From positions 1-32,864 of the IMG/VR virus record IMGVR_UViG_3300035041_000096: a stretch of DNA of 32,864 bases. One strand, 5' to 3'. The notes beneath the pieces are model-generated. The model was not told where the DNA came from, made no database searches, and saw only the letters and a program-made list of their open reading frames with translations. Source of the DNA: a virus (taxonomy: Duplodnaviria; Caudoviricetes). How positions within the stretch are numbered: the stretch's first letter is position 1; every line of letters starts with the position of its first letter. The position numbers were made by a program, and so were the translations under genes. This document shows positions 592-24,462 of the stretch, in pieces.

Positions 592-601
592 CGGGTCGGA
601 T

Positions 602-633
602 AAAAAAATAACTTCCCGTTATAAAGGAAGTTA
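602..633 (-). terminator. Rho-independent terminator-like hairpin
   Basis: Stem TAACTTCC (609-616) / GGAAGTTA (626-633) with A7 at 602-608, which is a U-tract on the minus strand. Confidence 0.6.
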
Positions 634-647
634 CGTTACAGAAATGT

Positions 648-660
648 TGCCCGAAAGAGG
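648..660 (-). other. Putative att core: tRNA(-Leu-like) 3'-end fragment CCTCTTTCGGGCA
   Basis: The minus strand reads CCTCTTTCGGGCA, resembling the T-stem/acceptor 3' end of GCCCGAA-starting tRNA-Leu genes. The rest of the tRNA is absent. A terminator and direct repeats follow it. Confidence 0.4.
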
Positions 661-889
661 CCAAAAAAACTTTAAAATATTTTCTTCTCTCAAAAAATCG
701 CCATCTAAATGCCTTCAAATGCAGTATGATTGCTCGCTACACCATCACATCCTTTGCCCCTTGGGAACTTTTTAGGAACAGGTTTTTCTGACCTTTATTA
801 ATGCTATTATAATACTCATTGCATCTGTCTTCACTAGCCAACAAAATTATTTCAAATAATCCATACCCTGCATTTAGTGATGGTATACT

Positions 890-918
890 TTGCTATCTCC
901 AAGTGACTATGATAAACT
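890..918 (+). promoter_or_regulatory. Sigma70-type promoter for the TPR/FRG genes
   Basis: TTGCTA (890-895), 17 bp spacer, TAAACT (913-918) with an extended -10 TG at 910-911. Confidence 0.45.
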
Positions 919-984
919 GATTTCTCAGGCAGATTCAGAAAAATACTGAAAAGGTTAAAGCGATATTGAGTTTGGATGTAACAA

Positions 985-3243
985 ATGAACTATATCACTG
1001 AGTCAATTCTTGAATTCCTTAGGGGTACGGTCTATATACAGCCCGTCCTAATCGCCATGTCCATTGTAGCTGTTCTTGTTTTTCTCTTCCGCCAGCAAAA
1101 AGGCTTTCCATCGTATTTTAAAAACTTTACAATTCTTGCTGGAATTGGCTTCATAATATTAGATTTCAATCTATTTCTCTACAAAAACCTTTTCCTTTCA
1201 ATATTAGCGGTAATATGTATTAGTGTTCCTGCTAGTTTTAGTATTTTCCGATTCTTTTCTATTCAGCACAAGTTAAAAAAGATCAAACGCCTCGCCCAAC
1301 CAAGATCCATCGATTATAACATCATTGCGTCTTGGAAATTATTGCAAACACTTTCTCAAAACAAAATGTTTCCCCAGCAAAAGAAGATGTACAATCGAAA
1401 TAAAGTGTTCTTGCTGATTAAACTAGGCAGCATTCGCGCTGTTGATGTTACTTTAAAAAAGTTTGAAGAAGATCAAGTGTACTATCATTTTATTCAGTAC
1501 ATCAAATACTTCACAATGGGGGAGACAATCACTGCTGTAAAAGAAATTAAGGCAGCAGAAGAAGCTTGCACACATGATACTGATCCGATCCAATATTTAC
1601 AAATTCTCATTAATCGTGGTGTCAGCCATGTTTTAATGAAGAATTATATGCCTGCTGATGACTATTTTCACAAGGCAATTGAATATTATGAAAACCACAA
1701 AATGAATAACAAGCAATTGCTTGGAACACTGTATTATAATTATGTATTCAATAAGGCACGTCTTGGTGGTTCTTTATGGAAGGAAACTCTCGAAGAGTAT
1801 AAATCCATTCTAGATATGAACGATAGCTATGATTGTATTACGTTCTTTAATACAAAACTGGAGCTACTCAGGCAAACCGAAGCAAACAGAGTTGTTATTG
1901 ATAAAGCTGTTCATGAAACTTTTTCTCACCTTATGAATAGCAAATTACCAAAAGAAAATAAATTATTTTTTGCGATAAGCCTAACCAGAATCGTATGGGC
2001 AACACGAATAAGCCCAGAAAATTGTCTTGATGTAATTGCGTCCGATATTGAAACAATTTTTAAGTTGCCAATGCCAAATAGGTATTATGCATTCAAGGAT
2101 CTTAACTTATTGTTCATGGATTTGCATGGAGACATCGCTGAATCACACCACAAGATTAGGGAAGCAGCAAATTCTTACATGAGTAATCAAGCAGAGAGCG
2201 ATTTGGAATCTTATCGCAAAGAATTGCCTAAAGACGCGATTTTTGAAAAAGGCTTTTGCTATAGGGAATCAGCAGGACTTCAAAAAAAGTCACTTGATCA
2301 TTACGACTTAAAGAAAATTCTATCTTATATCAAGTCTGCCTCAGCGTTGTACCATGAGAACTCGCTACTAATTGAGGAAAATATTTGTCGCTTGGATATT
2401 ATGGACGAATTATGCGATGCAAAAAACTTAAATGAAAATCATAAAATCATCTATCGCGATGAAATGTTAAGCCAACTCGTTGAAATTGAAACGTATCTAT
2501 CTACATTAGCAGAACAGACCAATTTGGCAGAATTTTATTTACGACTATGCTTTTATTGCATGCATTTAGATGATTATGAGAAATGCATCATATACTACAA
2601 AAAGTTTGTGATGTCTTCAGTCTCGCTGGAACACTTTGCACCCTGGTTACATCGTTACCATATGTATAACTCATTTGTTGTAAGAACTTTTTATTTCCTT
2701 AAAGCTATTCAGACAATTAAAGGATCTAAAGGAATCATCCAGTATCCATCAATGGTGCAACAATGGTTTGAATCTTTTCCAAGCCATGATGGGTTTGTCG
2801 ACTCGATTCTTTTAGGGAAATTCATGGGTTTCTCCAGTATTATACCTCTAAAGCAGAAAACTTGGATTGATCCTCTTTTTAAAGATGGATCTACACCAAG
2901 GATCCACACATGGTTTTGGATGGTTCCGTTGGAGCTCAATTTGGATATTACATATTCGCAGTTTGAAGACGACAATTACTCAAATTGTATTTTGTTCGAT
3001 AATGATAGACACCCCCTCGAATCAAATACATCCAATAAAATCTGTGCTGATATGAACAATACAGGATTAAACTTCATTGGTGCAAAACAAACAAATCTTT
3101 TAAAAGACGGTTTGCCCCCAGAACAAATAATATTTATCGATAATCTTTATTCAATAATAATCGCACATGTCAATCCAGAATGCCCAACAATTGAAAAGAT
3201 CAAAGCGCTATTTAAGGACACAAGTTTTCCCGTAGAGGTCTAA
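985..3243 (+). CDS. Membrane-anchored TPR/helical-repeat protein (752 aa), function unknown
   Basis: Long AT-rich ORF with about 3 N-terminal hydrophobic segments and TPR-like helix pairs (e.g. QILINRGVSHVLMKNYMPADDYFHKAIEY, AEFYLRLCFYCMHLDDYEKCIIYYKK). Confidence 0.75.
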   Translation: MNYITESILEFLRGTVYIQPVLIAMSIVAVLVFLFRQQKGFPSYFKNFTILAGIGFIILDFNLFLYKNLFLSILAVICISVPASFSIFRFFSIQHKLKKIKRLAQPRSIDYNIIASWKLLQTLSQNKMFPQQKKMYNRNKVFLLIKLGSIRAVDVTLKKFEEDQVYYHFIQYIKYFTMGETITAVKEIKAAEEACTHDTDPIQYLQILINRGVSHVLMKNYMPADDYFHKAIEYYENHKMNNKQLLGTLYYNYVFNKARLGGSLWKETLEEYKSILDMNDSYDCITFFNTKLELLRQTEANRVVIDKAVHETFSHLMNSKLPKENKLFFAISLTRIVWATRISPENCLDVIASDIETIFKLPMPNRYYAFKDLNLLFMDLHGDIAESHHKIREAANSYMSNQAESDLESYRKELPKDAIFEKGFCYRESAGLQKKSLDHYDLKKILSYIKSASALYHENSLLIEENICRLDIMDELCDAKNLNENHKIIYRDEMLSQLVEIETYLSTLAEQTNLAEFYLRLCFYCMHLDDYEKCIIYYKKFVMSSVSLEHFAPWLHRYHMYNSFVVRTFYFLKAIQTIKGSKGIIQYPSMVQQWFESFPSHDGFVDSILLGKFMGFSSIIPLKQKTWIDPLFKDGSTPRIHTWFWMVPLELNLDITYSQFEDDNYSNCILFDNDRHPLESNTSNKICADMNNTGLNFIGAKQTNLLKDGLPPEQIIFIDNLYSIIIAHVNPECPTIEKIKALFKDTSFPVEV

Positions 3244-3305
3244 CATGCAATATTGAAACGTGCCCCCTCAAGTCTGAGACACGATAACTTATGGAGTAAG
3301 GTGAT

Positions 3306-4334
3306 ATGGAGATTGTATATGAAGATGTTTTTGAAGCAATAAGGTCCATCAACCCAAGAGATGGAATACTTAAAGTTAAAGAAGAATATGTCAAGCATGG
3401 GGCTCGTGGCTACATTACAAGATCAAATATTTATCAGACTCTCAATATGGGAGATGGTACATTCTGTGCATTTACGTCTTTACCTTGGGATGAATACTAT
3501 AGAGGTGAAAATCGGTTCTTTAATGATCTTACTCCGAGCATTCTTAGAAAAAGTAAATCCACAAAACAAAAACTTGAATTCATAAGGGACCAGATCAAAT
3601 TACTCGACTTTTATGATATAACGGCTCAGTTTCTTCAGGTACAACTAGCCATTGCCGACCATATGAGAGTTGACCTACAAGCTCTTGCACAGCACTATGG
3701 CTTAAAGACACATTTTGTGGACATCTCCAGCGAATTAGTAATTGCAGCCTTTTTTGCCACCCATGAGTTCCGGGCAGGTGATTTTTATCCCATCACTCAA
3801 GGCTATGGCTATATAAAGATTATCTCATTTATGCCGTTTCTGGGTGATAGTTTAGATAAAAATTTTCAAATGATAGGATTACAACCATTTTTGAGGCCAG
3901 GATTACAGTGTGCATTTGCGCTGAAACCTAATCTAGACGGCACGAACCACTATCATATCAGAACTATTAAATTCAAGCAGACCTACTTTTGTAAAGTTTT
4001 GGGTTGGATTTTTCGTAGTCAACAAAAAATTGAAGATCAGAACAAAAAGTCTTACACGGACCATAACATCCTATTTCCAAAAGAAGAAATCTGCGTACCC
4101 GCCGAATTAATCCGAAATAGTAATTCCGTGACGAAAACTAACCTCATAAAATATTGTGAAGAAAATATGCTAAATATTGATCAATTGCAACATGAGTTTT
4201 GTACAAGCGGTATTAAGATAACAGAGGAACCATTATATTCCCTGTCACCTCGGCGTCAGGATGAACTTTTTAGGGAGTATGAAGGAAGACCCTATGGTGA
4301 TGCTATGCTAAGCCCACCAAGACTGATTGGTTAA
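3306..4334 (+). CDS. FRG domain-containing protein
   Basis: FRG-family motifs YYRGE..., LTPSILR and ALAQHYGLKTHFVDISSELVIAAFFA, plus RPGLQCAF. SD GGAG/AAGG lies upstream. Confidence 0.85.
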   Translation: MEIVYEDVFEAIRSINPRDGILKVKEEYVKHGARGYITRSNIYQTLNMGDGTFCAFTSLPWDEYYRGENRFFNDLTPSILRKSKSTKQKLEFIRDQIKLLDFYDITAQFLQVQLAIADHMRVDLQALAQHYGLKTHFVDISSELVIAAFFATHEFRAGDFYPITQGYGYIKIISFMPFLGDSLDKNFQMIGLQPFLRPGLQCAFALKPNLDGTNHYHIRTIKFKQTYFCKVLGWIFRSQQKIEDQNKKSYTDHNILFPKEEICVPAELIRNSNSVTKTNLIKYCEENMLNIDQLQHEFCTSGIKITEEPLYSLSPRRQDELFREYEGRPYGDAMLSPPRLIG

Positions 4335-4438
4335 AAACCGAGAAGTTAAAAATGTATGCTGACAGTTGTATAGGGACACATGACACCCTAAGAATCAATG
4401 AATTTAGGATCTATAATTGGCAACCAATGTCGAAAACC

Positions 4439-4467
4439 TTGACATCGTTATATAACCTTAGTAGTAT
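4439..4467 (+). promoter_or_regulatory. Strong sigma70-type promoter
   Basis: Perfect -35 TTGACA (4439-4444), 17 bp spacer, -10 TAGTAT (4462-4467). Predicted TSS is about 4474. Confidence 0.75.
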
Positions 4468-4473
4468 TAAATC

Positions 4474-4644
4474 AGAAAGACAACTTGTGTGTTTTTCTAA
4501 ACGATGAAGCAAAGACTGTTCCAAGGTGCAGCCTTTGTGGAGTTTTATAAGGGTTCGGCGTTTACCACAACTTGGATAGATTAAAAGTCGAAAGAAAATG
4601 CCTTTTTTAAAAAGCTCTGCTTTTTATAGCAGGGCTTTTTTTTT
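4474..4644 (+). ncRNA. Putative structured ncRNA/leader (candidate RNA antitoxin) upstream of the PBECR4-like nuclease
   Basis: Lies between promoter and terminator with no ORF. Hairpin 4474-4482/4490-4498 and hairpin 4510-4518/4529-4537, whose loop TCCAAG (4520-4525) is complementary to CTTGGA (4571-4576), giving pseudoknot potential. Confidence 0.55.
4609..4644 (+). terminator. Rho-independent terminator upstream of the PBECR4 gene
   Basis: Stem AAAAAGCTCTGCT (4609-4621) / AGCAGGGCTTTTT (4628-4640) with one G-U pair, ending in a T9 run (4636-4644). Confidence 0.8.
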
Positions 4645-4684
4645 GAATAACAAGGTTTAAGCCATTATAAGTGAACATACATCA

Positions 4685-5281
4685 ATGTCTGATATACTTT
4701 ATGATAGTGCTTCCAATTTTCGCAAACTGCTGAATACACACTACGTATTAACTTTTGGCCGTAAAAACAAAATAACCAATCTGACGATCACCTTTGATGC
4801 AAGCAATTTCTGTCATTTAGCCGGGCTTCACAAGCTTAAAGACATGCCGCATCTCAAAAGAAAATCTTCAGTAATTTACAATCTAATATTAGAAAAGAGA
4901 TTAACCCTGCAAAATATTTCTGTCAGCCCCTTTTTTGACCAAATCGAGGACCGGTTGCGCGTCCTACAAAAATTGGAAGTAATTCTTGATATGGAAAACT
5001 TGAATTGGAAGTACTGCCAAGAAAGAAATCCGTTTCACTCAAAAATCAGAGCTGAATATCTTATAGAACATCAAGATGAAGAATCCACCTCATTTGTTTT
5101 CATTGAAAGAAACACCTTAGACCCACATCATTCCTGCAATTCTTGTTTTGAGTTTAAGCACAGAGATTATACGAGAAATCAAACACGACTGACGCTATTG
5201 GAAAAGAAGAAATTTGATCCAATTAAATCCTCATACGATCTACTCTATCGACGTGGTGGATATATGCCCTCTGATTGTTGA
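4685..5281 (+). CDS. PBECR4-like (BECR-fold) putative ribonuclease toxin
   Basis: 198 aa, basic. The motif ITFDASNFCHLAGLHKLKD and the later SKIRAEYLI match my recollection of the PBECR4 family signature (F...NF.HL.GLHKL.D). Confidence 0.7.
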   Translation: MSDILYDSASNFRKLLNTHYVLTFGRKNKITNLTITFDASNFCHLAGLHKLKDMPHLKRKSSVIYNLILEKRLTLQNISVSPFFDQIEDRLRVLQKLEVILDMENLNWKYCQERNPFHSKIRAEYLIEHQDEESTSFVFIERNTLDPHHSCNSCFEFKHRDYTRNQTRLTLLEKKKFDPIKSSYDLLYRRGGYMPSDC

Positions 5282-5299
5282 CAATGAAACCCATCCTCG

Positions 5300-5761
5300 T
5301 CAATGATTCTTCGTCACACCCTGCTTCTTCTCGTAGGTTCTCATGCCAGCAAGTCCCAACATCCCAGTCATTATCGGGATCATGAGTGAGAGATCAATAA
5401 CAGGGAACTCAAATACTTTTCCCGAAGCTGAAAATACTGCAATTGCCCAGGGTCTGAGGATGTAGTTGTTTGCCAGAGAGAGTCCACACACCCAGCCTAT
5501 GAAGGGTCTCCATCCGGCTACAAATGTTGACTGATGCTGAGCTTCAGCGAGATTGATCTCAAGCTGTGTATGCTTCTGCAGATTCTCTGCTTCAAGGGCT
5601 ATGCGTTCAAGCTCAGCCCGTTTCTCAGGTGGTAGTTCTCCGGTAATTGCAGATCTAATTCCAGTTGCTAAGTTCGTAATCCCTGAGCTCACCGAAGTGA
5701 CGACACTACCTGCCGCATCAGCAGTTTCTTTTGCCCCAAATATTTTTCCTAACCAACCCAT
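5300..5761 (-). CDS. Holin, 3TM (GTA_holin_3TM-like) family
   Basis: Signature INLAEAQHQSTFVAGWRPFIGWVCG...MLGLAGMRTYEKKQG; last gene of the late operon. Confidence 0.85.
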   Translation of the reverse strand: MGWLGKIFGAKETADAAGSVVTSVSSGITNLATGIRSAITGELPPEKRAELERIALEAENLQKHTQLEINLAEAQHQSTFVAGWRPFIGWVCGLSLANNYILRPWAIAVFSASGKVFEFPVIDLSLMIPIMTGMLGLAGMRTYEKKQGVTKNH

Positions 5762-5769
5762 AGTCTCTC

Positions 5770-6165
5770 CTACACAAATACTTTCTCAACAATGATAATC
5801 ATCGTTGACACCGTTCCGATTGACCCGAATACCAGCTTAATCACCGTTGCTCTCCAATCTCTAGTTTGGATCTCTTTTGTATGTTGATTCCTGGTTCTCC
5901 TAGCTACAGGACAGGTATCCTCTCGATTAAACTTGAAATCCTGGAATTCCGATCGGAAGGCTTTGAGTTCCCGAGCATTGTCTTTCACAGCTTTTCCAAA
6001 ACCATTGCCCACAATCATCTGATCAAGTCGATCAATTTGCTTGGCCATCTTATGTATCACGGGCTCTATCTCATCAAGTCGATGCTGGTTTGATTTTACG
6101 TTCTCATACATTGCCTGTGCCACTTGCCTGATATTCTCATTCGTTATGACTACTTCCATATCCAC
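5770..6165 (-). CDS. Hypothetical coiled-coil protein with a C-terminal TM helix (possible lysis accessory)
   Basis: 131 aa with a hydrophobic C-terminus VIKLVFGSIGTVSTMIIIV. Adjacent to the holin, with SD AGGAG upstream. Confidence 0.6.
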   Translation of the reverse strand: MDMEVVITNENIRQVAQAMYENVKSNQHRLDEIEPVIHKMAKQIDRLDQMIVGNGFGKAVKDNARELKAFRSEFQDFKFNREDTCPVARRTRNQHTKEIQTRDWRATVIKLVFGSIGTVSTMIIIVEKVFV

Positions 6166-6179
6166 TGAGTGCTCCTACC

Positions 6180-6644
6180 CTAGTAGGTTGCAATCTCTTC
6201 AAGTGAGGGATCAACCAGGATGTCTTCAACTTCCGAATAGATGGAATCAGTTTTGATGCACTCGTACATATGCTCATACACAGATGGTGTATCTGATATA
6301 TCGAGATCTGCTGGAAGTCTGAAATTGTAGGTTCTATTAAATAGCGGTTGTGGATCGTTATATGGAGCATCCAGTGGTGTTGAGTTCTCAGCAATGAGAG
6401 CCCTGGCATCCTCTTTCGAGATGAAATCCCGCATGGCAGCATCCATTGTCTGATCGAGGATAGTTTTGTAATAATCCTCCTGCAGCTTCATCTTCAACCC
6501 GCTTTCATAGGTGGCATACCCCATGACTGAGACTTTGGCGATCCCCCATTTAATGAAGTAATCTGCTCGGTCGATGCGGATGTATAATCTTGTATTCGCT
6601 CGTGTGTTATTGTGATCCTTATCAACTACTGCTCGTATTCCCAT
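6180..6644 (-). CDS. Hypothetical phage protein (tail-associated region)
   Basis: ORF within the operon. The start MGIRAVV at 6644 is chosen because of the purine-rich SD AAAGGGG upstream. Confidence 0.65.
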   Translation of the reverse strand: MGIRAVVDKDHNNTRANTRLYIRIDRADYFIKWGIAKVSVMGYATYESGLKMKLQEDYYKTILDQTMDAAMRDFISKEDARALIAENSTPLDAPYNDPQPLFNRTYNFRLPADLDISDTPSVYEHMYECIKTDSIYSEVEDILVDPSLEEIATY

Positions 6645-6658
6645 TGTTTTTTCCCCTT

Positions 6659-7198
6659 TTATATTCCCCAATTACTGAGGGTGCTTCTGGCCATTAAAAA
6701 ATCACTTGTATGAATGTGTGTATGAAGGCTTGTCGGCCAAGAATCTGACCAGGCCTTCGATCGGTCAGGCTTGATGACATATTTATCCGTAGCAGATAGT
6801 CCCCAGGTCCTCTGTAGGTAGGCAGCATCATATAATCGGTACCACAGGACGTCTATATGCTGGGTTCCATCACCGTCACCTGTGAGAACTCTCATTCGCC
6901 ACCTGGAGCACCATGCATGGGCTGTATTTGCATAAATCCCACCAGCAGCTCCATCTCCGTATGATTTACTCGCAGAGGTGGTCCAGCCGTTCAGGTAGTG
7001 GTAATAGTAGATGTAGAGATCGCCTGAATCGGTATTCCACCAGTGGTTTCTGAAATTTACATACCAGTACGGACGATGCCCCTGCCCGTACCACGAGGGA
7101 CTTCCTGAATAGCTGCCGTAGTTCCCGTCCCCATCAGCTTCAATGGTTCTTGTACTGTAATGAGTGCTAAACTCACCGAAGAGCTCTTCGCCAGCCAT
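6659..7198 (-). CDS. Hypothetical tail-associated protein, W/Y/G-rich
   Basis: Translationally coupled (TAATG overlap) to the tail fibre gene; aromatic-rich, beta-like composition. Confidence 0.65.
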   Translation of the reverse strand: MAGEELFGEFSTHYSTRTIEADGDGNYGSYSGSPSWYGQGHRPYWYVNFRNHWWNTDSGDLYIYYYHYLNGWTTSASKSYGDGAAGGIYANTAHAWCSRWRMRVLTGDGDGTQHIDVLWYRLYDAAYLQRTWGLSATDKYVIKPDRSKAWSDSWPTSLHTHIHTSDFLMARSTLSNWGI

Positions 7199-9237
7199 TA
7201 GCAGACAACCTTCACGATGTGACGATTATCCACTGCCGCATCGTTCCATACCTCGCCTTCGGGTTTCATGTAATATGTAGCTATGACTGGCCTTTTCATC
7301 CACCATCGTTTTTTAGTGAGAATGCCATCAGCTCTGAAGGTGAGTTTGGTGTTTACCGGGTATGGTCTGTCCACATACACAAGCACAAACCCCACTACGG
7401 CTCGAGGCATCTTATTATTCCCCTCTTTTCCGGCAAAGAAGCTGGCAGTATCAGAGGGGATTCCGTAATAGATCCCATCAACCAGGTGGGCATACCCATA
7501 CCTCCAGCCTAGTGGTGTTTCGATGAAATCGGCAAAGTCATTACCTACAGCACCTCGAACATAATTGCCCCAGATCTGGGTGAACGGCCAACCTGATGTG
7601 CCTATATTACTATCACCACCGCTTGAGTAGGGTATAATGCCGTTTTTCGGAGTTCTCAAATAGTTTGTATCCGTTCCATCAGCATGTACAAATCCTGGAT
7701 ACCCATTCAGGGTTTTCTCTGCAAGCACCCCATTACCATATAACAGGAACTGCCCGTTGATAGCTTTCAGGTATTCAACCCCGGCAGAGTTCTTGATGGA
7801 TAACCCGAAGAGATTTCCCTGGGAGAAACTCCAGGTCTCCCCCACCGTGTGCCCGGTAGGACTGCCGAATGAGATACTCAATCCCCCGTACCCAAGGGCA
7901 TAGGACTGACCTGATACAATCTCCTGCTGGCTAGTCCACGTACCACCGTTGACTCTCCACTTGAACGCATCCTGATAAAAGGTGTAGGTATCGTATGGGA
8001 TCTCTTTGACATATCGAACCGGTCTGGTATAGGTCCCATCAGCTTCTGCACTCCAGTGACCGGCAGAATCCCTTGATGAACCCGTATCCACATACTCGCT
8101 GTAGTGATCGAAGGTATAGGCTTCAATGGTCGTAGCATCCGGCATTCCTGACTCGGCATAGAGACTCGATGAAAAGTAGACTATGCGCCACATTCCTGTG
8201 GCATAATAATGAGCGGGACCCCACACACCGATATTCTGCTTCCAGAGCCGATTCCACATGAGATCGAGTTCATTCCCAGTTGGGATCACCCAGTCCGTTT
8301 TTCCTCCCGCAGACAGCGAATCTACCGCCTGGATGGCAGCAGTTGAGCCGAGAAAAGCTTTGAGGGCAGCAAAGTTCGTTTCGGCATCCCCGATCTCCCG
8401 AGAGTAGGTAGGGGTTGTGGGGGGACTTGAGAAATTTGATAGCGGCAGCTTCATGTCAGGAGGGTTGGTACCGTACCAGTTATCTGGCGCAGTCTCTATA
8501 TATCTCCACCCGTCAGTCCAGTTTCCCTTATCATAGAAGATGTATCCTCCTCCGGGTCCAATATCTCCGATCTGGTAAACGTGCTCGACCTGATAGGTAT
8601 GCTGTATGTTTGTTTGTGTGATCTGCACTTCAATCAAATCAACCGAAACGTCCCCTTCAGTTGGGGTGAGCAGGTCATTCTGCGTACCTCCCGAATGCAA
8701 GATCTCCCCCACTCCTACACTTTCCCTGGCAGCAAATCGGGCTCCGGTGTCAGCTCCCTCTCCAGAACGAAAGGTCCCGGTAAACTCCCCGTCTTTTGCT
8801 TTGATAATCCCGTTACCCAGGTAAAACCCCTTGCCGTCAGCTGGTGCTTCTCCATTGGGGCTGTAGCCGGAATACACTGCACCATCAGAGGTGACCTGGA
8901 TCTTTGTTGCAATGAGATGAGCATAAAAGGGAGTCCACTCGTACTGGGTAGGACTGGTGATATCAGGAGTAGAAGTCGTCTTGTTGTAAGCATGCCCGAT
9001 ATGGGTATGCAGCCCTTCAGTGTACGTGGTGCTGATATGTGAGCCGTAGATATTACTTGCGAACGCTACCCAGGTAAACAGACTCTGCCCATCTTCTCCG
9101 CGTGAACCAGATGGTCCCTGCGGACCTTCAGGGCCCACTTGCCCCTGATCCCCTTGAGGACCCTGTGGACCGGTTGGACCGGGTTCTCCGTCGAGTACTT
9201 CAAAGATGGTGATCTGGTTACGGGTGATAATGCTCAT
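7198..9237 (-). CDS. Tail fibre/receptor-binding protein: collagen-like repeat, DUF1566/C-type-lectin-like module, peptidase G2-like C-terminus
   Basis: GxY repeats near the N-terminus. YQIGDIGPGGGYIFYDKG..GWRYIETAP...DWVIPTGNEL...RPVR resembles DUF1566/CLec. GNDFADFIE...GIPSD...VVGFVLV resembles the G2 autocleavage domain. Confidence 0.75.
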   Translation of the reverse strand: MSIITRNQITIFEVLDGEPGPTGPQGPQGDQGQVGPEGPQGPSGSRGEDGQSLFTWVAFASNIYGSHISTTYTEGLHTHIGHAYNKTTSTPDITSPTQYEWTPFYAHLIATKIQVTSDGAVYSGYSPNGEAPADGKGFYLGNGIIKAKDGEFTGTFRSGEGADTGARFAARESVGVGEILHSGGTQNDLLTPTEGDVSVDLIEVQITQTNIQHTYQVEHVYQIGDIGPGGGYIFYDKGNWTDGWRYIETAPDNWYGTNPPDMKLPLSNFSSPPTTPTYSREIGDAETNFAALKAFLGSTAAIQAVDSLSAGGKTDWVIPTGNELDLMWNRLWKQNIGVWGPAHYYATGMWRIVYFSSSLYAESGMPDATTIEAYTFDHYSEYVDTGSSRDSAGHWSAEADGTYTRPVRYVKEIPYDTYTFYQDAFKWRVNGGTWTSQQEIVSGQSYALGYGGLSISFGSPTGHTVGETWSFSQGNLFGLSIKNSAGVEYLKAINGQFLLYGNGVLAEKTLNGYPGFVHADGTDTNYLRTPKNGIIPYSSGGDSNIGTSGWPFTQIWGNYVRGAVGNDFADFIETPLGWRYGYAHLVDGIYYGIPSDTASFFAGKEGNNKMPRAVVGFVLVYVDRPYPVNTKLTFRADGILTKKRWWMKRPVIATYYMKPEGEVWNDAAVDNRHIVKVVC
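9088..9189 (-). repeat. Collagen-like (Gly-X-Y)11 coding repeat
   Basis: Encodes GEPGPTGPQGPQGDQGQVGPEGPQGPSGSRGEDG. Confidence 0.9.
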
Positions 9238-9244
9238 TGTCTCT

Positions 9245-10291
9245 TTAGCTCACACTGCAGGTGATCGTTGATTTCACATCCACATCCGAGGTCCCCACTG
9301 AGATCGTCTTTCCGGTCTTCGAAGATGAGGCATCGGCAAAGTTCCTGGAGGTTCCATTCTTATCGGTAATCGTCCAGGTATACGTGTAGCCTGTCCCGGC
9401 AGCATCAATCTCCTCCCCGTTTCGAAAGAGTTTTGCTGATAGGTCTGTGGTTCCCACCCCATTCTTGAATACCGTTCCGGCAGTAGATTCAATGACCACC
9501 TGGATCGGATCTGTCATGTCGGTGAAGGCAATCACGTCGTAGAACGAATCACCATTGGTGGGAGAAGCAGCATCATTGTCTGTGATCTTCACCTTAAATT
9601 GCTGTAATCCCGTTACCATTGATGGGGTGACCGTCAAGGAACTGCTTGTCTCTCCAGTTATGAGATCCCAGTCAGCCCCTGCCCCTTCATCAGCATTGCC
9701 TGGAGCATACCCAAACCACTGGTAGCTTAGCAGCGTGGTATCCAGTGTTGCTCCTCGGTAGAGCTCTGCTTTAGCTGTGAGACTGTTCGGGGCCGAGTTC
9801 TTAAACACATTCCCGTTTGGTGCGTGAACTGCGGCAACGGCAATATTATTCCCGTCAATGACTTTGGAGAGGTTGATGCTCATCTTGTAGGTGAGATCCA
9901 GTCCCGTGGCACTGTCGTGATAGATAACGGTACACAGGTATTCGATCGCTGAAATACTTCCGGTAAGCTTATTACTACTCACAGAAAGGATATGGTTTTT
10001 GGTTCCAGATACCGCTTCTCCAGTACTCAAGGCTGCAAATGTACTTTGGTCTGATGGTTTGCGCTGCCAGGTCACCGACAGGACTGCAGAGTCCGTGATC
10101 TTATCACTCCCGCTTCCCAGGATAAACAGGCTTGGCGTAAGCACCAGGGAGGTTGCACCCCAATCTGGGGTATAGGTCCCGGTGTCAGCTGAATAGCGCT
10201 GGGTCTTGGGGAGATTCGATGTGATGAAGCCCGTCAGTGTGAGGGCATCGTTGTAATCCATGATGGTAATTTGGCCAACTGATACTGCCAT
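9245..10291 (-). CDS. Minor tail protein with Ig-like beta-sandwich repeats
   Basis: S/T/G-rich, with the repeated module xxGxVFKN...LxAxLxRxG...Y.W (two copies). Located in the tail-tip region. Confidence 0.7.
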   Translation of the reverse strand: MAVSVGQITIMDYNDALTLTGFITSNLPKTQRYSADTGTYTPDWGATSLVLTPSLFILGSGSDKITDSAVLSVTWQRKPSDQSTFAALSTGEAVSGTKNHILSVSSNKLTGSISAIEYLCTVIYHDSATGLDLTYKMSINLSKVIDGNNIAVAAVHAPNGNVFKNSAPNSLTAKAELYRGATLDTTLLSYQWFGYAPGNADEGAGADWDLITGETSSSLTVTPSMVTGLQQFKVKITDNDAASPTNGDSFYDVIAFTDMTDPIQVVIESTAGTVFKNGVGTTDLSAKLFRNGEEIDAAGTGYTYTWTITDKNGTSRNFADASSSKTGKTISVGTSDVDVKSTITCSVS

Positions 10292-10306
10292 AAGCGTTCT
10301 CTCCTT

Positions 10307-12025
10307 TTATATGAGCTCACAAAAGAATGTGGCTCTGTGTTCTACATCTTCATCTGTTATCTGAATGCTTGTACTTCCGGCCGAGTAATGAGCTGAGTTC
10401 CACACATCATCTGCATTACTATCTTGTGATTTTCGAGTCCACCGAAAGCGCGATGGATCATATCTGTCAGTTATCTCTTGGGCTCCCTGGTAGACTCTGG
10501 CTTCCAATGTGGTGTCTGTCAGTGCAGGTCGAAAGATATTCCCATTCGTTGAGACTACTACCAGGATGATCGCATCATCTCCCTTTTCACCTTTCTGGGT
10601 GTTTCTGGAGGTGTAATATGATGAGGTAATCGCCTGGATATCCCCAAACTCTGATATCCCAACTGCCTGATACCCGATTCCTGGGATCTCATCGGTCCAT
10701 CGCTTCTGTGTGATCTGCACATCGGTATCTATGGGAGGATCGACTTGGGAGAGATGAACAATATCTCCTGGTTCATAGAGATCATCAAAGAGTTCAAACT
10801 GATAGGAGATCGTCCCAAAGCTGTTCTTTTCATGCAGTCGTGTTGCGTGCAGCCTGGCATCATCCTGAGTAAAAAGATGATAAGCCTCCACTGACTCTGG
10901 ATTGGATGCTGTTGAGGGGAGAAACGTCTCCTGTATGCTGTGCCGATACAAAGCTCTGCCCCAAATTTCAAAAACATAGAGCTTGAGCGACTCGGTTGTG
11001 GGGTTGTGAAAGACCACCTTGGCTTTCTGGGCTTCATAGGTGGCAGTAGCAGTGATTCCGCTATCGGATCTCCAGATGAGCTCGTGATGATCACTTGATA
11101 CAAGCGAGATATCTTCATTCTTGAGCCTAGAGGTTTTCTCCTGGTATGGCCGGTCAAGCCAGGTTGAGCGGTAGGTTTGATACACCTCAGTGATATCGGC
11201 ATCCTCTGGATAATATCCACCAGGCTCAATGAGCTTGCCAGAGGGAATCCCGTCACTTCCAATAGGGAGGCCATCCTGGTAGAGGCACACCGAATCAAGG
11301 ACCCCAGCCTTCGGCCAGGAGAGGATAATTCCATCATGGTCAGTGTCCTGCTTTGTCACGGTAAACGGGCTGACCGTTGATATGTTTTCTGAAACTGTGC
11401 CTTTGGGGGTGAGAATATCTGGATCCCACTTGAAGAGTGTCAACGCTCCATCAGGCTTCGTAGTAAGCACATACCCGTATTCTCTCAAAACCTCATCGAG
11501 CACATTACGATACGTTTGTTTGTTGGCTCTGATACTCACCATACGGATGCTCTGTGTGGCCATTGTAATTACATCCCGATCAATTTCTGATTGCTCATAG
11601 CCTGCCCTCACGAGCAGCGATTCAAACAATGATCCAATTGTTACTCCTGGATCATCGATTGATGAAGGATACTGAAGGTCCTCTGGTATCTTGGTATCGA
11701 GTCTCCAGCTGGTATCTCGGAGTTCAAGAGTTATGTCCTCCTGGAACTCATCACGTTTGTGCTCAAATCCTGTTGCAACATATCCATAAAAATGAGGATC
11801 TCCATTTCTAAAAACTTTGGCATACACTTTTCGACCAGGTTCCAGGGACAAAAATTTAGCCACCAAGAGCTGATCGTAGACGAGCTTACAGGAGGCTGTA
11901 TCAATAACCGATGCTAGCTCGTCATTTATGATCTGCTCTTGTTGAGTGTATGTCTCCGCTCGAATGTGATGGGTAACCTCAATCCAGGTGCTCTCCCCTG
12001 GGAATAGGAGGAAAAGATCTATCAT
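10307..12025 (-). CDS. Tail tip/hub (Tal-like) minor structural protein
   Basis: 572 aa directly after the tape measure (ATGA overlap), with a C-terminal STNGNIF...LEARVYQG..F.W.R Ig-like module. Confidence 0.65.
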   Translation of the reverse strand: MIDLFLLFPGESTWIEVTHHIRAETYTQQEQIINDELASVIDTASCKLVYDQLLVAKFLSLEPGRKVYAKVFRNGDPHFYGYVATGFEHKRDEFQEDITLELRDTSWRLDTKIPEDLQYPSSIDDPGVTIGSLFESLLVRAGYEQSEIDRDVITMATQSIRMVSIRANKQTYRNVLDEVLREYGYVLTTKPDGALTLFKWDPDILTPKGTVSENISTVSPFTVTKQDTDHDGIILSWPKAGVLDSVCLYQDGLPIGSDGIPSGKLIEPGGYYPEDADITEVYQTYRSTWLDRPYQEKTSRLKNEDISLVSSDHHELIWRSDSGITATATYEAQKAKVVFHNPTTESLKLYVFEIWGRALYRHSIQETFLPSTASNPESVEAYHLFTQDDARLHATRLHEKNSFGTISYQFELFDDLYEPGDIVHLSQVDPPIDTDVQITQKRWTDEIPGIGYQAVGISEFGDIQAITSSYYTSRNTQKGEKGDDAIILVVVSTNGNIFRPALTDTTLEARVYQGAQEITDRYDPSRFRWTRKSQDSNADDVWNSAHYSAGSTSIQITDEDVEHRATFFCELI

Positions 12026-22056: not shown

Positions 22057-24462
22057 CTACCTTCCTCTGCTTTCTTTCCATATCCTCATGATCTCCTCAT
22101 ATTCCATGTTCTTTGGCGGCTCCTGCTTATCCGGGATATCATCAGTCTCCTCCAGCAAGATTGTTCTCTTCCTTCCATCAGGGCTCTCAGCATACCCTGT
22201 TACCCTGAATTTTGCATCCATACCGAAGAGGTACTCATCTTCTGATGCAAAGTTGCTCCTTCCATTAATGTAGCCTGCCCGGTTTTTCCCCTTGGTCTTG
22301 ATGACCGCCAGGTATCCACCATCGGTCCCAAAGTTTCGCCCGGGAGTAATGGAGGTTGATGAGTAGGCTTTCCACTCAACGTAGGCCCAATCACCGCTTT
22401 TCCACTTCTTCCACTGCTTTTCAATCTCAGGGATATTGGCAACTCCTCGTCCAACAACCCCATCATAGTAGGGTAGTTTATCAAGTGCCTGGTCGAGCTC
22501 CTGGTAGGCTATTCCCTCCAAGGCATCACGGTTAATCCCACGATACCCAGAACCGGTGTAATTTGCTATGGCTTGACGCTCTGAAAAGGTGAAAGAATTC
22601 CAGGACTCGTGGGTAAGCTTGGTTACCTCCTGAGAAGTACGTCCGATCAGAGGTCCCTGTGGGTTCACAGGTTTATGCTTAGGAGCAGGTTTTGCCTTGA
22701 AATCTTTTTCCCACCCATAGAGGTAATCCAGGCGCTCGGTGAGGATCTTGTAATAGTTTTTTTGCTCCATGGACGACAGGCCGCTGGTCTTCAGGATCTC
22801 GGTGATATCACCCTTCTTGATGCGGATCTTCAGTATCCTGATCTGCTTAGCGATATCAGCGTCTGTTACGTGCTTAAAGAGTCCGGCGGAGGCATGATTC
22901 ATGGAAGGATCCCGCAAAGTCTTGAGCTCGGTTACCTTTGCCCCAAACGCTGAACCCTTCTTCGCCCCTTGAGCCCGGTAGAAAAGCGTGCCGCCCTGAT
23001 CAATGCGGGTAATCGTTGAGACTTTACCGCCTGATATCATCAGGTTATCAATGCTTGATCCTGCAACATCCCAGTTGGCAAGCCACGCATCGGTGACAAA
23101 CCCAGATTTCACCCTGCTTGCATTTGAGGCCATCTCCAGGCCTCCAGACCCAACCTGTTTGAAATCACTTCCCAGGTGTTTGGTAGCGACCGCTAGATCA
23201 TCCCCGATGTAGGCAAGACGAGAGGAGGCAACCTGGACACCCACTTTGTCATAGATCTGGTTTGCAACAAACTCATTGCGTACCCGCTCACTCGAGCCGT
23301 GATATGTCTTTACAATCCACTCACTGCCCTCATCATCGACAAAAAGCTGTGCCCCCGTGGATCCTCCAAGATGAGAGCCCTTCTTCTGGGTTAATCTCGC
23401 CCCGAAGGCCTTCGCTCCGGCTTCCCCTGCGGGTAGAGACGAGACTGGTGGCGGCAGGTTGAGACTCTTGGCCGAGCCTTTGGTCTTTACCACTCCTCTC
23501 CAGCTCTCATAATCAGTCCATGGCTGTTGGCCCTCGCCCTTTATCCCACGCACCTTGGGTGGATAGCCTTTGATCTGGCCACGGATGCGACAGCGACAGT
23601 GGATATCAAAACTTGCTACCCCTGACTGCAAGGGAGCTGCTACCCACCCGATTGACGGGACTTTCCAACCCTTTTCCTTCTTTTCCTTCCCATCGAGTGC
23701 TCCATGCTCGGGCCGTGTCCTCGCATCCAAGGCAGCATCCCAGATCTCTTTGAGCTCCACCCCCTGCTCACTAGCCTTCTCATATGCTTTCCTTTGGCCT
23801 TCAACTGCCGCTCGTTGCCCTTCGGTCCTGGCTATACGCAGGGCTTTATAGAGCTGTCCTTTGTTCGATGGAACATACTTCCCGCTATGAAGCTTCGCAA
23901 TCCCCATAGCATCGCGTATGCTCCTGGCCATTTTGGGATAATCATCGCCTTTGACAATCCCGATCGTGATGAGCTTACGGATGGCATAGACTGCCTGATC
24001 TCGGTCACCTTGGAGGTATCTCGACTCAGAGAGCTTTCCAAGCGGAGATAATGCAAGGGCCTCTACATCCTCATCCCGCAGCAGTCCCCACTTAAGCGCA
24101 CACCCACCATTCTGGTCGATGGCGTAGCCGTGCTGATAGAAGGATTCTTCGAAGAGTTTTTTCGTGGTATCGATAAGCAGATTGTCTTTTCGCTTGAGGA
24201 TGGGTTTGAGGTGTGAGGAGACCTGGGCTTCAAGGTTTTTCAGGCGGTTGTACTTACTCATCTCTGAGAAGCTGAGTTTCCCATCCTTCGCATATGAGGC
24301 ATACACTCCAGCAAGATCTGCTTTGATCTGCTCGTAGGCCTGGACATACAGGGAGAGGATCTTCTCCTCACTTGTGAGCTGCTGATTGTAGAGGGAAGCT
24401 TGAATACCGCCATAGAGCTTGTCAAAGAGCGCACCCCCTCCAGTGGCTTTACTTATAGCCAA
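22057..24462 (-). CDS. MuF/SPP1 gp7-like minor head protein with C-terminal HipA/PI3K-like kinase and ADP-ribosyltransferase domains
   Basis: MuF motifs RIARTE, WDAALDARTRPEH..LDG and HCRC. Kinase-like GGSTG, WIVK, NEFVA, DAWLANWD..NL and RIDQG. ART motifs YT..GY..IN, GRG, YSSTS and EDE. Confidence 0.85.
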   Translation of the reverse strand: MAISKATGGGALFDKLYGGIQASLYNQQLTSEEKILSLYVQAYEQIKADLAGVYASYAKDGKLSFSEMSKYNRLKNLEAQVSSHLKPILKRKDNLLIDTTKKLFEESFYQHGYAIDQNGGCALKWGLLRDEDVEALALSPLGKLSESRYLQGDRDQAVYAIRKLITIGIVKGDDYPKMARSIRDAMGIAKLHSGKYVPSNKGQLYKALRIARTEGQRAAVEGQRKAYEKASEQGVELKEIWDAALDARTRPEHGALDGKEKKEKGWKVPSIGWVAAPLQSGVASFDIHCRCRIRGQIKGYPPKVRGIKGEGQQPWTDYESWRGVVKTKGSAKSLNLPPPVSSLPAGEAGAKAFGARLTQKKGSHLGGSTGAQLFVDDEGSEWIVKTYHGSSERVRNEFVANQIYDKVGVQVASSRLAYIGDDLAVATKHLGSDFKQVGSGGLEMASNASRVKSGFVTDAWLANWDVAGSSIDNLMISGGKVSTITRIDQGGTLFYRAQGAKKGSAFGAKVTELKTLRDPSMNHASAGLFKHVTDADIAKQIRILKIRIKKGDITEILKTSGLSSMEQKNYYKILTERLDYLYGWEKDFKAKPAPKHKPVNPQGPLIGRTSQEVTKLTHESWNSFTFSERQAIANYTGSGYRGINRDALEGIAYQELDQALDKLPYYDGVVGRGVANIPEIEKQWKKWKSGDWAYVEWKAYSSTSITPGRNFGTDGGYLAVIKTKGKNRAGYINGRSNFASEDEYLFGMDAKFRVTGYAESPDGRKRTILLEETDDIPDKQEPPKNMEYEEIMRIWKESRGR

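Follow-up and report, generated by a model that had tools for sequence, protein, structure and literature searches.

Closest described systems

In the type III toxin–antitoxin systems ToxIN, AbiQ, CptIN and TenpIN, a single promoter precedes a pseudoknotted RNA, a terminator and the gene of a predicted endoribonuclease, and tandem RNA units ahead of the terminator and RNase gene are the defining pattern (PMC5086642). The same order of elements is found in the DNA analysed here (the window, 32,864 nt), a linear IMG/VR virus record with an estimated completeness of 51 %, and relatives of the window cassette likewise lie on plasmids and in prophages. In the classical type III systems a MazF/Kid-like toxin cuts an antitoxin made of tandem repeats, whereas the window combines a PBECR4 protein with an RNA that has no repeat (PMC5086642). 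AbiF-RCd22 of a Clostridioides difficile prophage (bioRxiv 10.1101/2025.04.15.648962) shares the gene order of promoter, Rfam orphan RNA, terminator and RNase toxin; it too adjoins a holin gene, and its RNA antitoxin is unrelated to ToxI. AbiF and AbiV are HEPN RNases and RCd22 has two hairpin motifs, in contrast to the PBECR4 protein and single pseudoknotted drum RNA of the window.

The drum RNA (RF02958) was described by Weinberg et al. (2017, PMC5737381) as a motif that is highly conserved and has a terminator on its 3′ side, and to which no function was assigned. Its association with nearby proteins was called ‘compelling’, with details given in the supplement; partner genes occur on either side and on either strand, and drum was listed among the widespread orphan RNAs flagged as likely to be sophisticated in function. 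The window shares with published drum a full-length match, the 3′ terminator, a kink-turn and a nearby protein gene, and differs in that the main text of that paper names neither a function nor a nuclease partner. A related orphan RNA, skipping-rope, is a tRNA mimic according to a preprint. The PBECR domains of phage polyvalent proteins (Iyer et al. 2017, PMC5512222) share with the window protein the PF18813 family, the placement of the His and Ser/Thr residues and the occurrence of solo forms in phages and mobile elements; the sections on these domains present them as predicted effectors and mention no RNA partner. Additionally, the pseudo-ToxI of phage phiTE (PMC3475682) is a phage-borne antitoxin-like RNA without a toxin, comparable to the lone phage drums described below, for which a role of this kind is a hypothesis.

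Both parts of the window locus, the drum RNA and the PBECR4 protein, are thus already catalogued. In literature that was mostly open-access and included the main text of the 2017 paper (PMC5737381), neither a link between drum and PBECR4 nor a type III reading of it was found; the supplement of that paper may cover this protein family already, with a different label. Literature searches likewise returned no function assigned to drum since 2017, no solved or assayed PBECR domain, and the name PBECR4 in a single paper only, as a plasmid gene label. By sequence prediction, the order of one promoter, RNA first, terminator and then toxin gene is present in the window; an abiF-type RNA motif with a HEPN toxin is absent, and the RNA matches drum only. 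By its predicted layout the cassette is type III-like, and it falls outside ToxIN, CptIN, TenpIN and AbiF by toxin family or repeat structure. Promoter-like site, drum, terminator and PBECR4 gene together form a conserved mobile cassette which, with a probability of roughly 0.65, is a type III-like toxin–antitoxin module; PBECR4, with its predicted BECR fold, would then bring to type III a toxin fold that has so far not been reported there.

Organization of the cassette and its surroundings

Terminase, portal, head, tail and holin genes are all encoded on the minus strand of the window. GC content is 35–39 % over bases 601–5400 compared with 44–53 % over bases 5401–12000, and the low-GC block (601–5400) holds the genes for the TPR and FRG proteins together with the drum/PBECR4 cassette, which is convergent with the holin gene. 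The features are as follows.

985–4334, plus strand: TPR-repeat gene (752 aa) and FRG-domain gene (342 aa; PADLOC PDC-S15, E 2e-12), same low-GC cargo block, context
4439–4467, plus strand: sigma-70/sigma-A type promoter-like site, TTGACA-17-TAGTAT (10/12), position kept in relatives
4474–4498, plus strand: 5′ leader hairpin, kept in relatives, not part of the Rfam drum model
4499–4606, plus strand: drum RNA core (Rfam RF02958), 87.4 bits against a gathering threshold of 43, full model 1–112
4499–4502/4542–4545, plus strand: P1, from the Rfam model and alignment
4503–4509 and 4538–4541, plus strand: kink-turn, with bulge 4503–4505 and pairs G4506·A4541, A4507·G4540, A4508·G4539 and G4509·U4538
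4510–4537, plus strand: P2 hairpin (P1, kink-turn and P2 together 4499–4545)
4520–4576, plus strand: pseudoknot 1, P2 loop 4520–4525 (TCCAAG) paired with 4571–4576 (CTTGGA)
4552–4602, plus strand: second crossing helix pair, GGU/ACC 4552–4554/4564–4566 and 4557–4563/4596–4602
4579–4589, plus strand: small hairpin
4590–4598, plus strand: conserved A-rich strand
4609–4644, plus strand: intrinsic terminator, 13-pair stem (4609–4640) and U-tract
near 4669–4674, plus strand: weak ribosome-binding site, read from sequence
4685–5281, plus strand: PBECR4 gene (PF18813), 198 aa, predicted BECR-fold endoribonuclease
5300–5761, minus strand: holin gene, convergent with the cassette and placed where the prophage late genes end, context outside the module

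A 51-codon ORF (4352–4507) spans the cassette promoter. The TPR and FRG genes are possible further defence cargo. Elsewhere in the window, a MuF-like minor head protein of 801 aa (22057–24462, minus strand) has a long C-terminal extension outside the matched phage families, which may carry effector domains.

Identity and structure of the RNA

The initial annotation had offered the RNA as a candidate new antitoxin. That the RNA is structured is borne out, but it is not new: an Rfam search, as suggested there, returned drum, which is the sole Rfam match in the window. The segment 4473–4645 folds at −48.6 kcal/mol (z −3.07), with 0/200 shuffles as low. The kink-turn conforms to the drum k-turn signature of C:G, A:G and G:U at positions −1, 3 and 4 (PMC8191799, Table 1). 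The annotation's hairpins and pseudoknot 1 are retained in the present model, but the kink-turn and the second crossing helix pair had been overlooked.

Covariation of the TCCAAG/CTTGGA pairing was assessed in 28 drum copies aligned by sequence only; the copies are related, and the counts are not independent events. Two-sided changes occur at 6/6 pairs and 94.6 % of cells are paired; the initial annotation had singled out this pairing for such a check. The whole 17-pair test structure is 87.6 % paired in the same alignment, compared with 28–43 % when slid by 1–3 columns. Cognate loop and strand form a mean of 5.3 Watson–Crick pairs versus 2.9 for non-cognate ones (0/100000 permutations), and 11/16 distinct combinations pair at 6/6, two low ones being alignment offsets. 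The covariation and the permutation test rule out an incidental pairing. For the helix 4557–4563/4596–4602, cognate duplexes reach −6.1 compared with −2.7 kcal/mol (27 combinations; 0/100000 permutations), and this helix crosses the near-invariant GGU/ACC helix, which is fully paired in 25/28 copies. A further GTGG/CCAC helix (4537–4540/4565–4568), also proposed initially, is pairable in the window but fully paired in only 4/21 distinct combinations; it was rejected as unconserved, and GTGG at 4537–4540 is the non-canonical strand of the drum kink-turn (PMC8191799).

Rfam counts 29 pairs for drum (PMC12510878) and the covariance-model match at the window holds 23 nested pairs; thus the 6-bp pseudoknot is probably part of the published consensus already. 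No direct-repeat families are present in 4430–4690, so that the window drum is a single, non-repeated unit, as first described.

Transcription signals and leader

Within the window alone, promoter-like sites (9 compared with 8.1 in shuffles) and terminators (2 compared with 2.1) are at chance level, and support for both therefore comes from relatives. Among 39 related loci with RNA and ORF, a promoter of at least 10/12 lies within 110 nt in 24, against 1.4 expected from mononucleotide shuffles; a terminator separates RNA and ORF in 35; and the 5′ hairpin recurs at z < −2 in 21. Promoter, first hairpin and terminator had each been called from the letters of the window and are present there, with a predicted start site near 4474 and the terminator U-tract ending 40 nt ahead of the ATG at 4685.

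Since the RNA sits in a 5′ leader before a terminator, drum could act purely in cis, as a riboswitch or as an attenuator responsive to protein: it would set the read-through into the nuclease gene and would not bind the protein in trans at all. Complementarity between the terminator loop and the 5′ end of the transcript occurs in two subgroups of loci, over 7 nt with a compensatory change in one and over 5 nt in the other.

L007, L021, L052, L053 and L059: first 5′-end/terminator-loop subgroup
L003, L005, L009, L023, L024, L070 and L077: second 5′-end/terminator-loop subgroup

This pairing is absent in the window, however, and the conserved helices there end at 4602 while the terminator stem starts at 4609, which leaves no visible antiterminator overlap. 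It is also common for drum to stand alone with no gene downstream, and drum is tied to one protein clade and not to a pathway. A purely cis-acting role is accordingly judged improbable.

The PBECR4 protein

The 198 aa product matches PF18813 over residues 4–178 at 101.8 bits (cut-off 27; E 8e-29), in agreement with its first description as PBECR4-like. PF18813 is the only Pfam family found at E ≤ 0.1, PADLOC and NCBIfam returned nothing, and none of the three gave a match to ToxN/MazF/PemK-type or HEPN/Abi families. All Atlas neighbours of the protein are PF18813, and a profile of close homologues matches 1342 clusters at 50 % identity. PBECR RNases carry an N-terminal helix with a His, together with a C-terminal Ser/Thr (Iyer et al. 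2017, PMC5512222). Across an alignment of 129 homologues, most of them at ~30 % identity, His44 is conserved in 129/129, Arg90 in 128/129 (Lys in one) and Ser/Thr153 in 128/129; in the predicted model H44 sits in helix 39–46 and S153 in strand 149–156. Judged from its sequence, the window PBECR4 keeps the His/Ser pair of BECR RNases intact.

In structural comparison, Foldseek with a model of pLDDT 97 gave no match at E ≤ 0.001, and a fold from a shallow alignment (pLDDT 74) gave weak rows only. VIA-align placed the colicin D tRNase at Z 3.8 (rmsd 3.0, 77 residues), BrnT at Z 3.8 and RelE at 2.7–2.8, all level with unrelated chains. Sequence profile searches found no solved relative. Chains of MazF/Kid or HEPN type did not stand out in these fold searches, an absence that is no evidence of differing folds. 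The BECR-fold nuclease proposed at the outset is thus supported by the PF18813 HMM and the retained catalytic-type residues but matched weakly in structure (best Z 3.8). Because these searches leave the fold unconfirmed, RNase activity is a prediction from the family, and the weak colicin D match makes tRNA as a target a lead only.

At several loci an intact RNA is followed by an interrupted nuclease gene (L007, L053, L059, L066, L081, L123, L133, L140, L156 and L186). Such broken copies, together with the weak fold-search matches and the lack of a solved relative by sequence, would fit an RNA-binding protein inactive as a nuclease that hitchhikes with drum in a selfish or neutral cassette. 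The near-invariance of His44, Arg90 and Ser/Thr153 at ~30 % identity argues against this, and we regard an inactive protein as very improbable.

Conservation of drum upstream of PBECR4

Upstream regions of PBECR4 homologues were inspected as the initial annotation had proposed, and the order of promoter, RNA, terminator and nuclease gene proved to be conserved. In the clade of the window protein, drum lies directly upstream on the same strand in 43/48 protein clusters (80 % identity; 99 loci pooled) and was undetected in 5/48. Six of the 99 loci were first found through the RNA; the count omits a locus in which the contig start truncates the RNA, a locus lacking upstream DNA, duplicates, and 15 viral copies that are near-identical. 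By source, 11 genome loci found through the protein had drum directly upstream above the cut-off in 8, below it in 2 and not at all in 1. Of 38 metagenome loci, 19 were scanned with Rfam and 15 of these contained drum, while 17 more were found with a model made here; viral and plasmid loci had drum in 14/15 scanned. In a protein-first sample of one class, 38/401 genomes carried PF18813 and 49 matches yielded 28 new loci: drum was upstream in 15/15 genes of the window clade and in 0/13 other PF18813 genes. Among control genomes, Lactococcus lactis has a PF18813 match and no drum match.

Where a host is named, related loci belong to Spirochaetota or Bacillota, among them plasmids of Enterococcus and Streptococcus. 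The nearest named relative (L001, 62 %) is from a Spirochaetales MAG and is likewise beside a holin. Neighbours of the cassettes include holins, integrases, relaxases, restriction–modification genes and housekeeping genes; the cassette occurs on plasmids, in prophages and inside restriction–modification operons, with unrelated flanking genes, and no protein antitoxin gene lies between RNA and nuclease. A recognisable defence neighbour is present at about 7/41 loci, a count that has no control. At L197, the drum–PBECR4 cassette lies between the type I restriction genes hsdS and hsdR. In viral contigs, a scan with an alignment of close homologues gave no relatives and one with a broad alignment gave 31; tblastn of 50,697 annotated phage records returned no match.

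The sister clade and its RNAs

A quick tree of 59/60 rows separates 45 rows (40 with drum, 5 other) from 14 rows with 99 % SH-aLRT. PBECR4 genes without drum are still preceded by a promoter, a non-coding stretch of 70–200 nt and a hairpin: promoters scoring at least 9/12 are present in 13/15 leaders (3.2 expected) and a strict terminator in 10/15 (0.1 expected), the strict finder missing hairpins that are visible by eye. Twelve sister-clade upstream regions scanned against Rfam gave no match. Two long tandem RNA copies are found in 7/10 tested sister-clade loci, and two RNA types, labelled B and C by eye, can be distinguished.

L204, 1288–1399, plus strand: uncatalogued RNA type B, upstream of PBECR4 genes, also in L205, L206 and L208
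L062, 1180–1460, plus strand: uncatalogued RNA type C, ~180–200 nt, also in L067, L211, L213–L216, L219 and L222

Type B copies are 45–54 nt long at a spacing of 53–54; each unit (53–54 nt) comprises an inner hairpin and a short 3′ hairpin, the loop of which could pair with an upstream CUCC/UCCC. Type C copies are 35–48 nt long at a spacing of 70–84, and the type C RNA, which contains an internally repeated hairpin unit and lies between promoter and terminator, precedes another PBECR4 subclade. These two-copy RNAs match the type III pattern of tandem units before a terminator and RNase gene, and are thus the strongest indirect support for RNA antitoxins holding PBECR4 genes in check.

Structured leaders with terminators that are unlike drum, B and C precede PBECR4 at L011, L065, L218, L048, L188, L217 and L221. 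Those of L048 and L188 retain drum-like 3′ ends, and that of L221 resembles sequence downstream of the L112 drum. At L217 (1361–1423), a DUF3800-VIII RNA lies just downstream of the PBECR4 gene on the opposite strand. At L215 (1277–2244, minus strand), two large genes that lack a Pfam match and resemble BREX pglX and pglZ enclose a type C PBECR4 cassette and, after it, a lone drum.

Neighbours of drum and lone drums

Searching from the RNA, 10 drum hits were obtained in 151 genomes of one class, with PBECR4 next in 7 (6/9 without the centre genome). The remaining three had a PemK/MazF-family gene next, a contig edge, and no readable downstream sequence, respectively. The first of these (L075, 807–1609, minus strand) is a drum of 43.6 bits that precedes, with promoter and terminator, a PemK/MazF-family RNase toxin gene. 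In the phylum of L001, 151 genomes gave two drum hits, both with PBECR4. At L080 (1610–2564, minus strand) a 146 aa ORF without a Pfam match is flanked by two drum RNAs.

In viral contigs, two patterns yielded 78 loci, 41 of them at 30 bits or more and 32 distinct. PBECR4 is downstream in 8 of the distinct drums, interrupted in 4 of those, and is absent within 1.2 kb in 24/32. Nine of the 24 are near tRNA genes.

L084, L101, L104, L114, L116, L117, L119, L147 and L151: lone drums near phage tRNA genes, without PBECR4 within 1.2 kb

Some lone drums are 83–94 % identical to PBECR4-linked drums, and L141 and L158 keep the same upstream gene as L140, as would be expected had the nuclease gene been lost. 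Drums in tRNA clusters have 62–79 % identity to the nearest linked drum (8/9 measured).

The position of these nine among phage tRNA genes, and the tRNA mimicry of skipping-rope, raise the possibility that drum itself is the working part and that PBECR4 matures or stabilises it, or is activated or guided by it, in a joint ribonucleoprotein, such as one that acts on translation as a decoy or tRNA-like mimic. With a kink-turn and two pseudoknots, drum is also far more elaborate than ToxI or CptI. However, the terminator between RNA and gene in most loci keeps the protein scarce, as for a toxin; other PBECR4 clades are served by unrelated RNA folds; and one drum precedes a MazF-family toxin. We therefore consider such an RNA-centred ribonucleoprotein unlikely.

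Proposed mechanism and significance

The type III-like toxin–antitoxin reading is supported by the conserved order, the covarying pseudoknot, the retained predicted catalytic residues and the repeated RNAs of the sister clade. The recurring interrupted nuclease genes behind intact RNAs, the frequent presence of PBECR4 next to drum in genome searches from the RNA, and the carriage of the cassette among unrelated neighbours also speak for it. Counting against it are the unconfirmed fold (the BECR structure match being weak), the many lone drums, the 5/48 clusters without drum, a modest defence-island signal, the partner genes on either side and strand reported in 2017, the tRNA-mimic precedent of skipping-rope, and the single unrepeated RNA. 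By analogy with ToxIN and AbiF-RCd22, most transcripts would stop at the terminator and give a ~170 nt RNA in excess, and rare read-through would supply little protein. The folded RNA would bind and block the predicted RNA-cutting toxin, occupying its active site, possibly via the invariant A-rich 3′ strand. Were transcription of the cassette to stop, through phage takeover or loss of the element, the RNA would decay and free the nuclease, which could then cut cellular or phage RNA and arrest growth, resulting in abortive infection or in addiction that stabilises the element.

More tentatively, and with the balance somewhat against it, solo PBECR4 proteins may be a large undescribed branch of type III with a BECR-fold toxin and an RNA of its own for each clade (drum in one, at least two uncatalogued two-copy RNAs in the sister clade), the lone drums of phage tRNA clusters being captured antitoxins that disarm such defences.

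Drum would gain a first function that can be tested from this pairing, in which its partner is a predicted BECR nuclease and the type III layout is fixed. If the type III-like reading is true, PBECR4 would join the MazF-like and HEPN folds as a third kind of type III toxin fold, one with many members, and the loci described here would add several antitoxin RNAs of new fold as well as a candidate for RNA-based counter-defence by phages.
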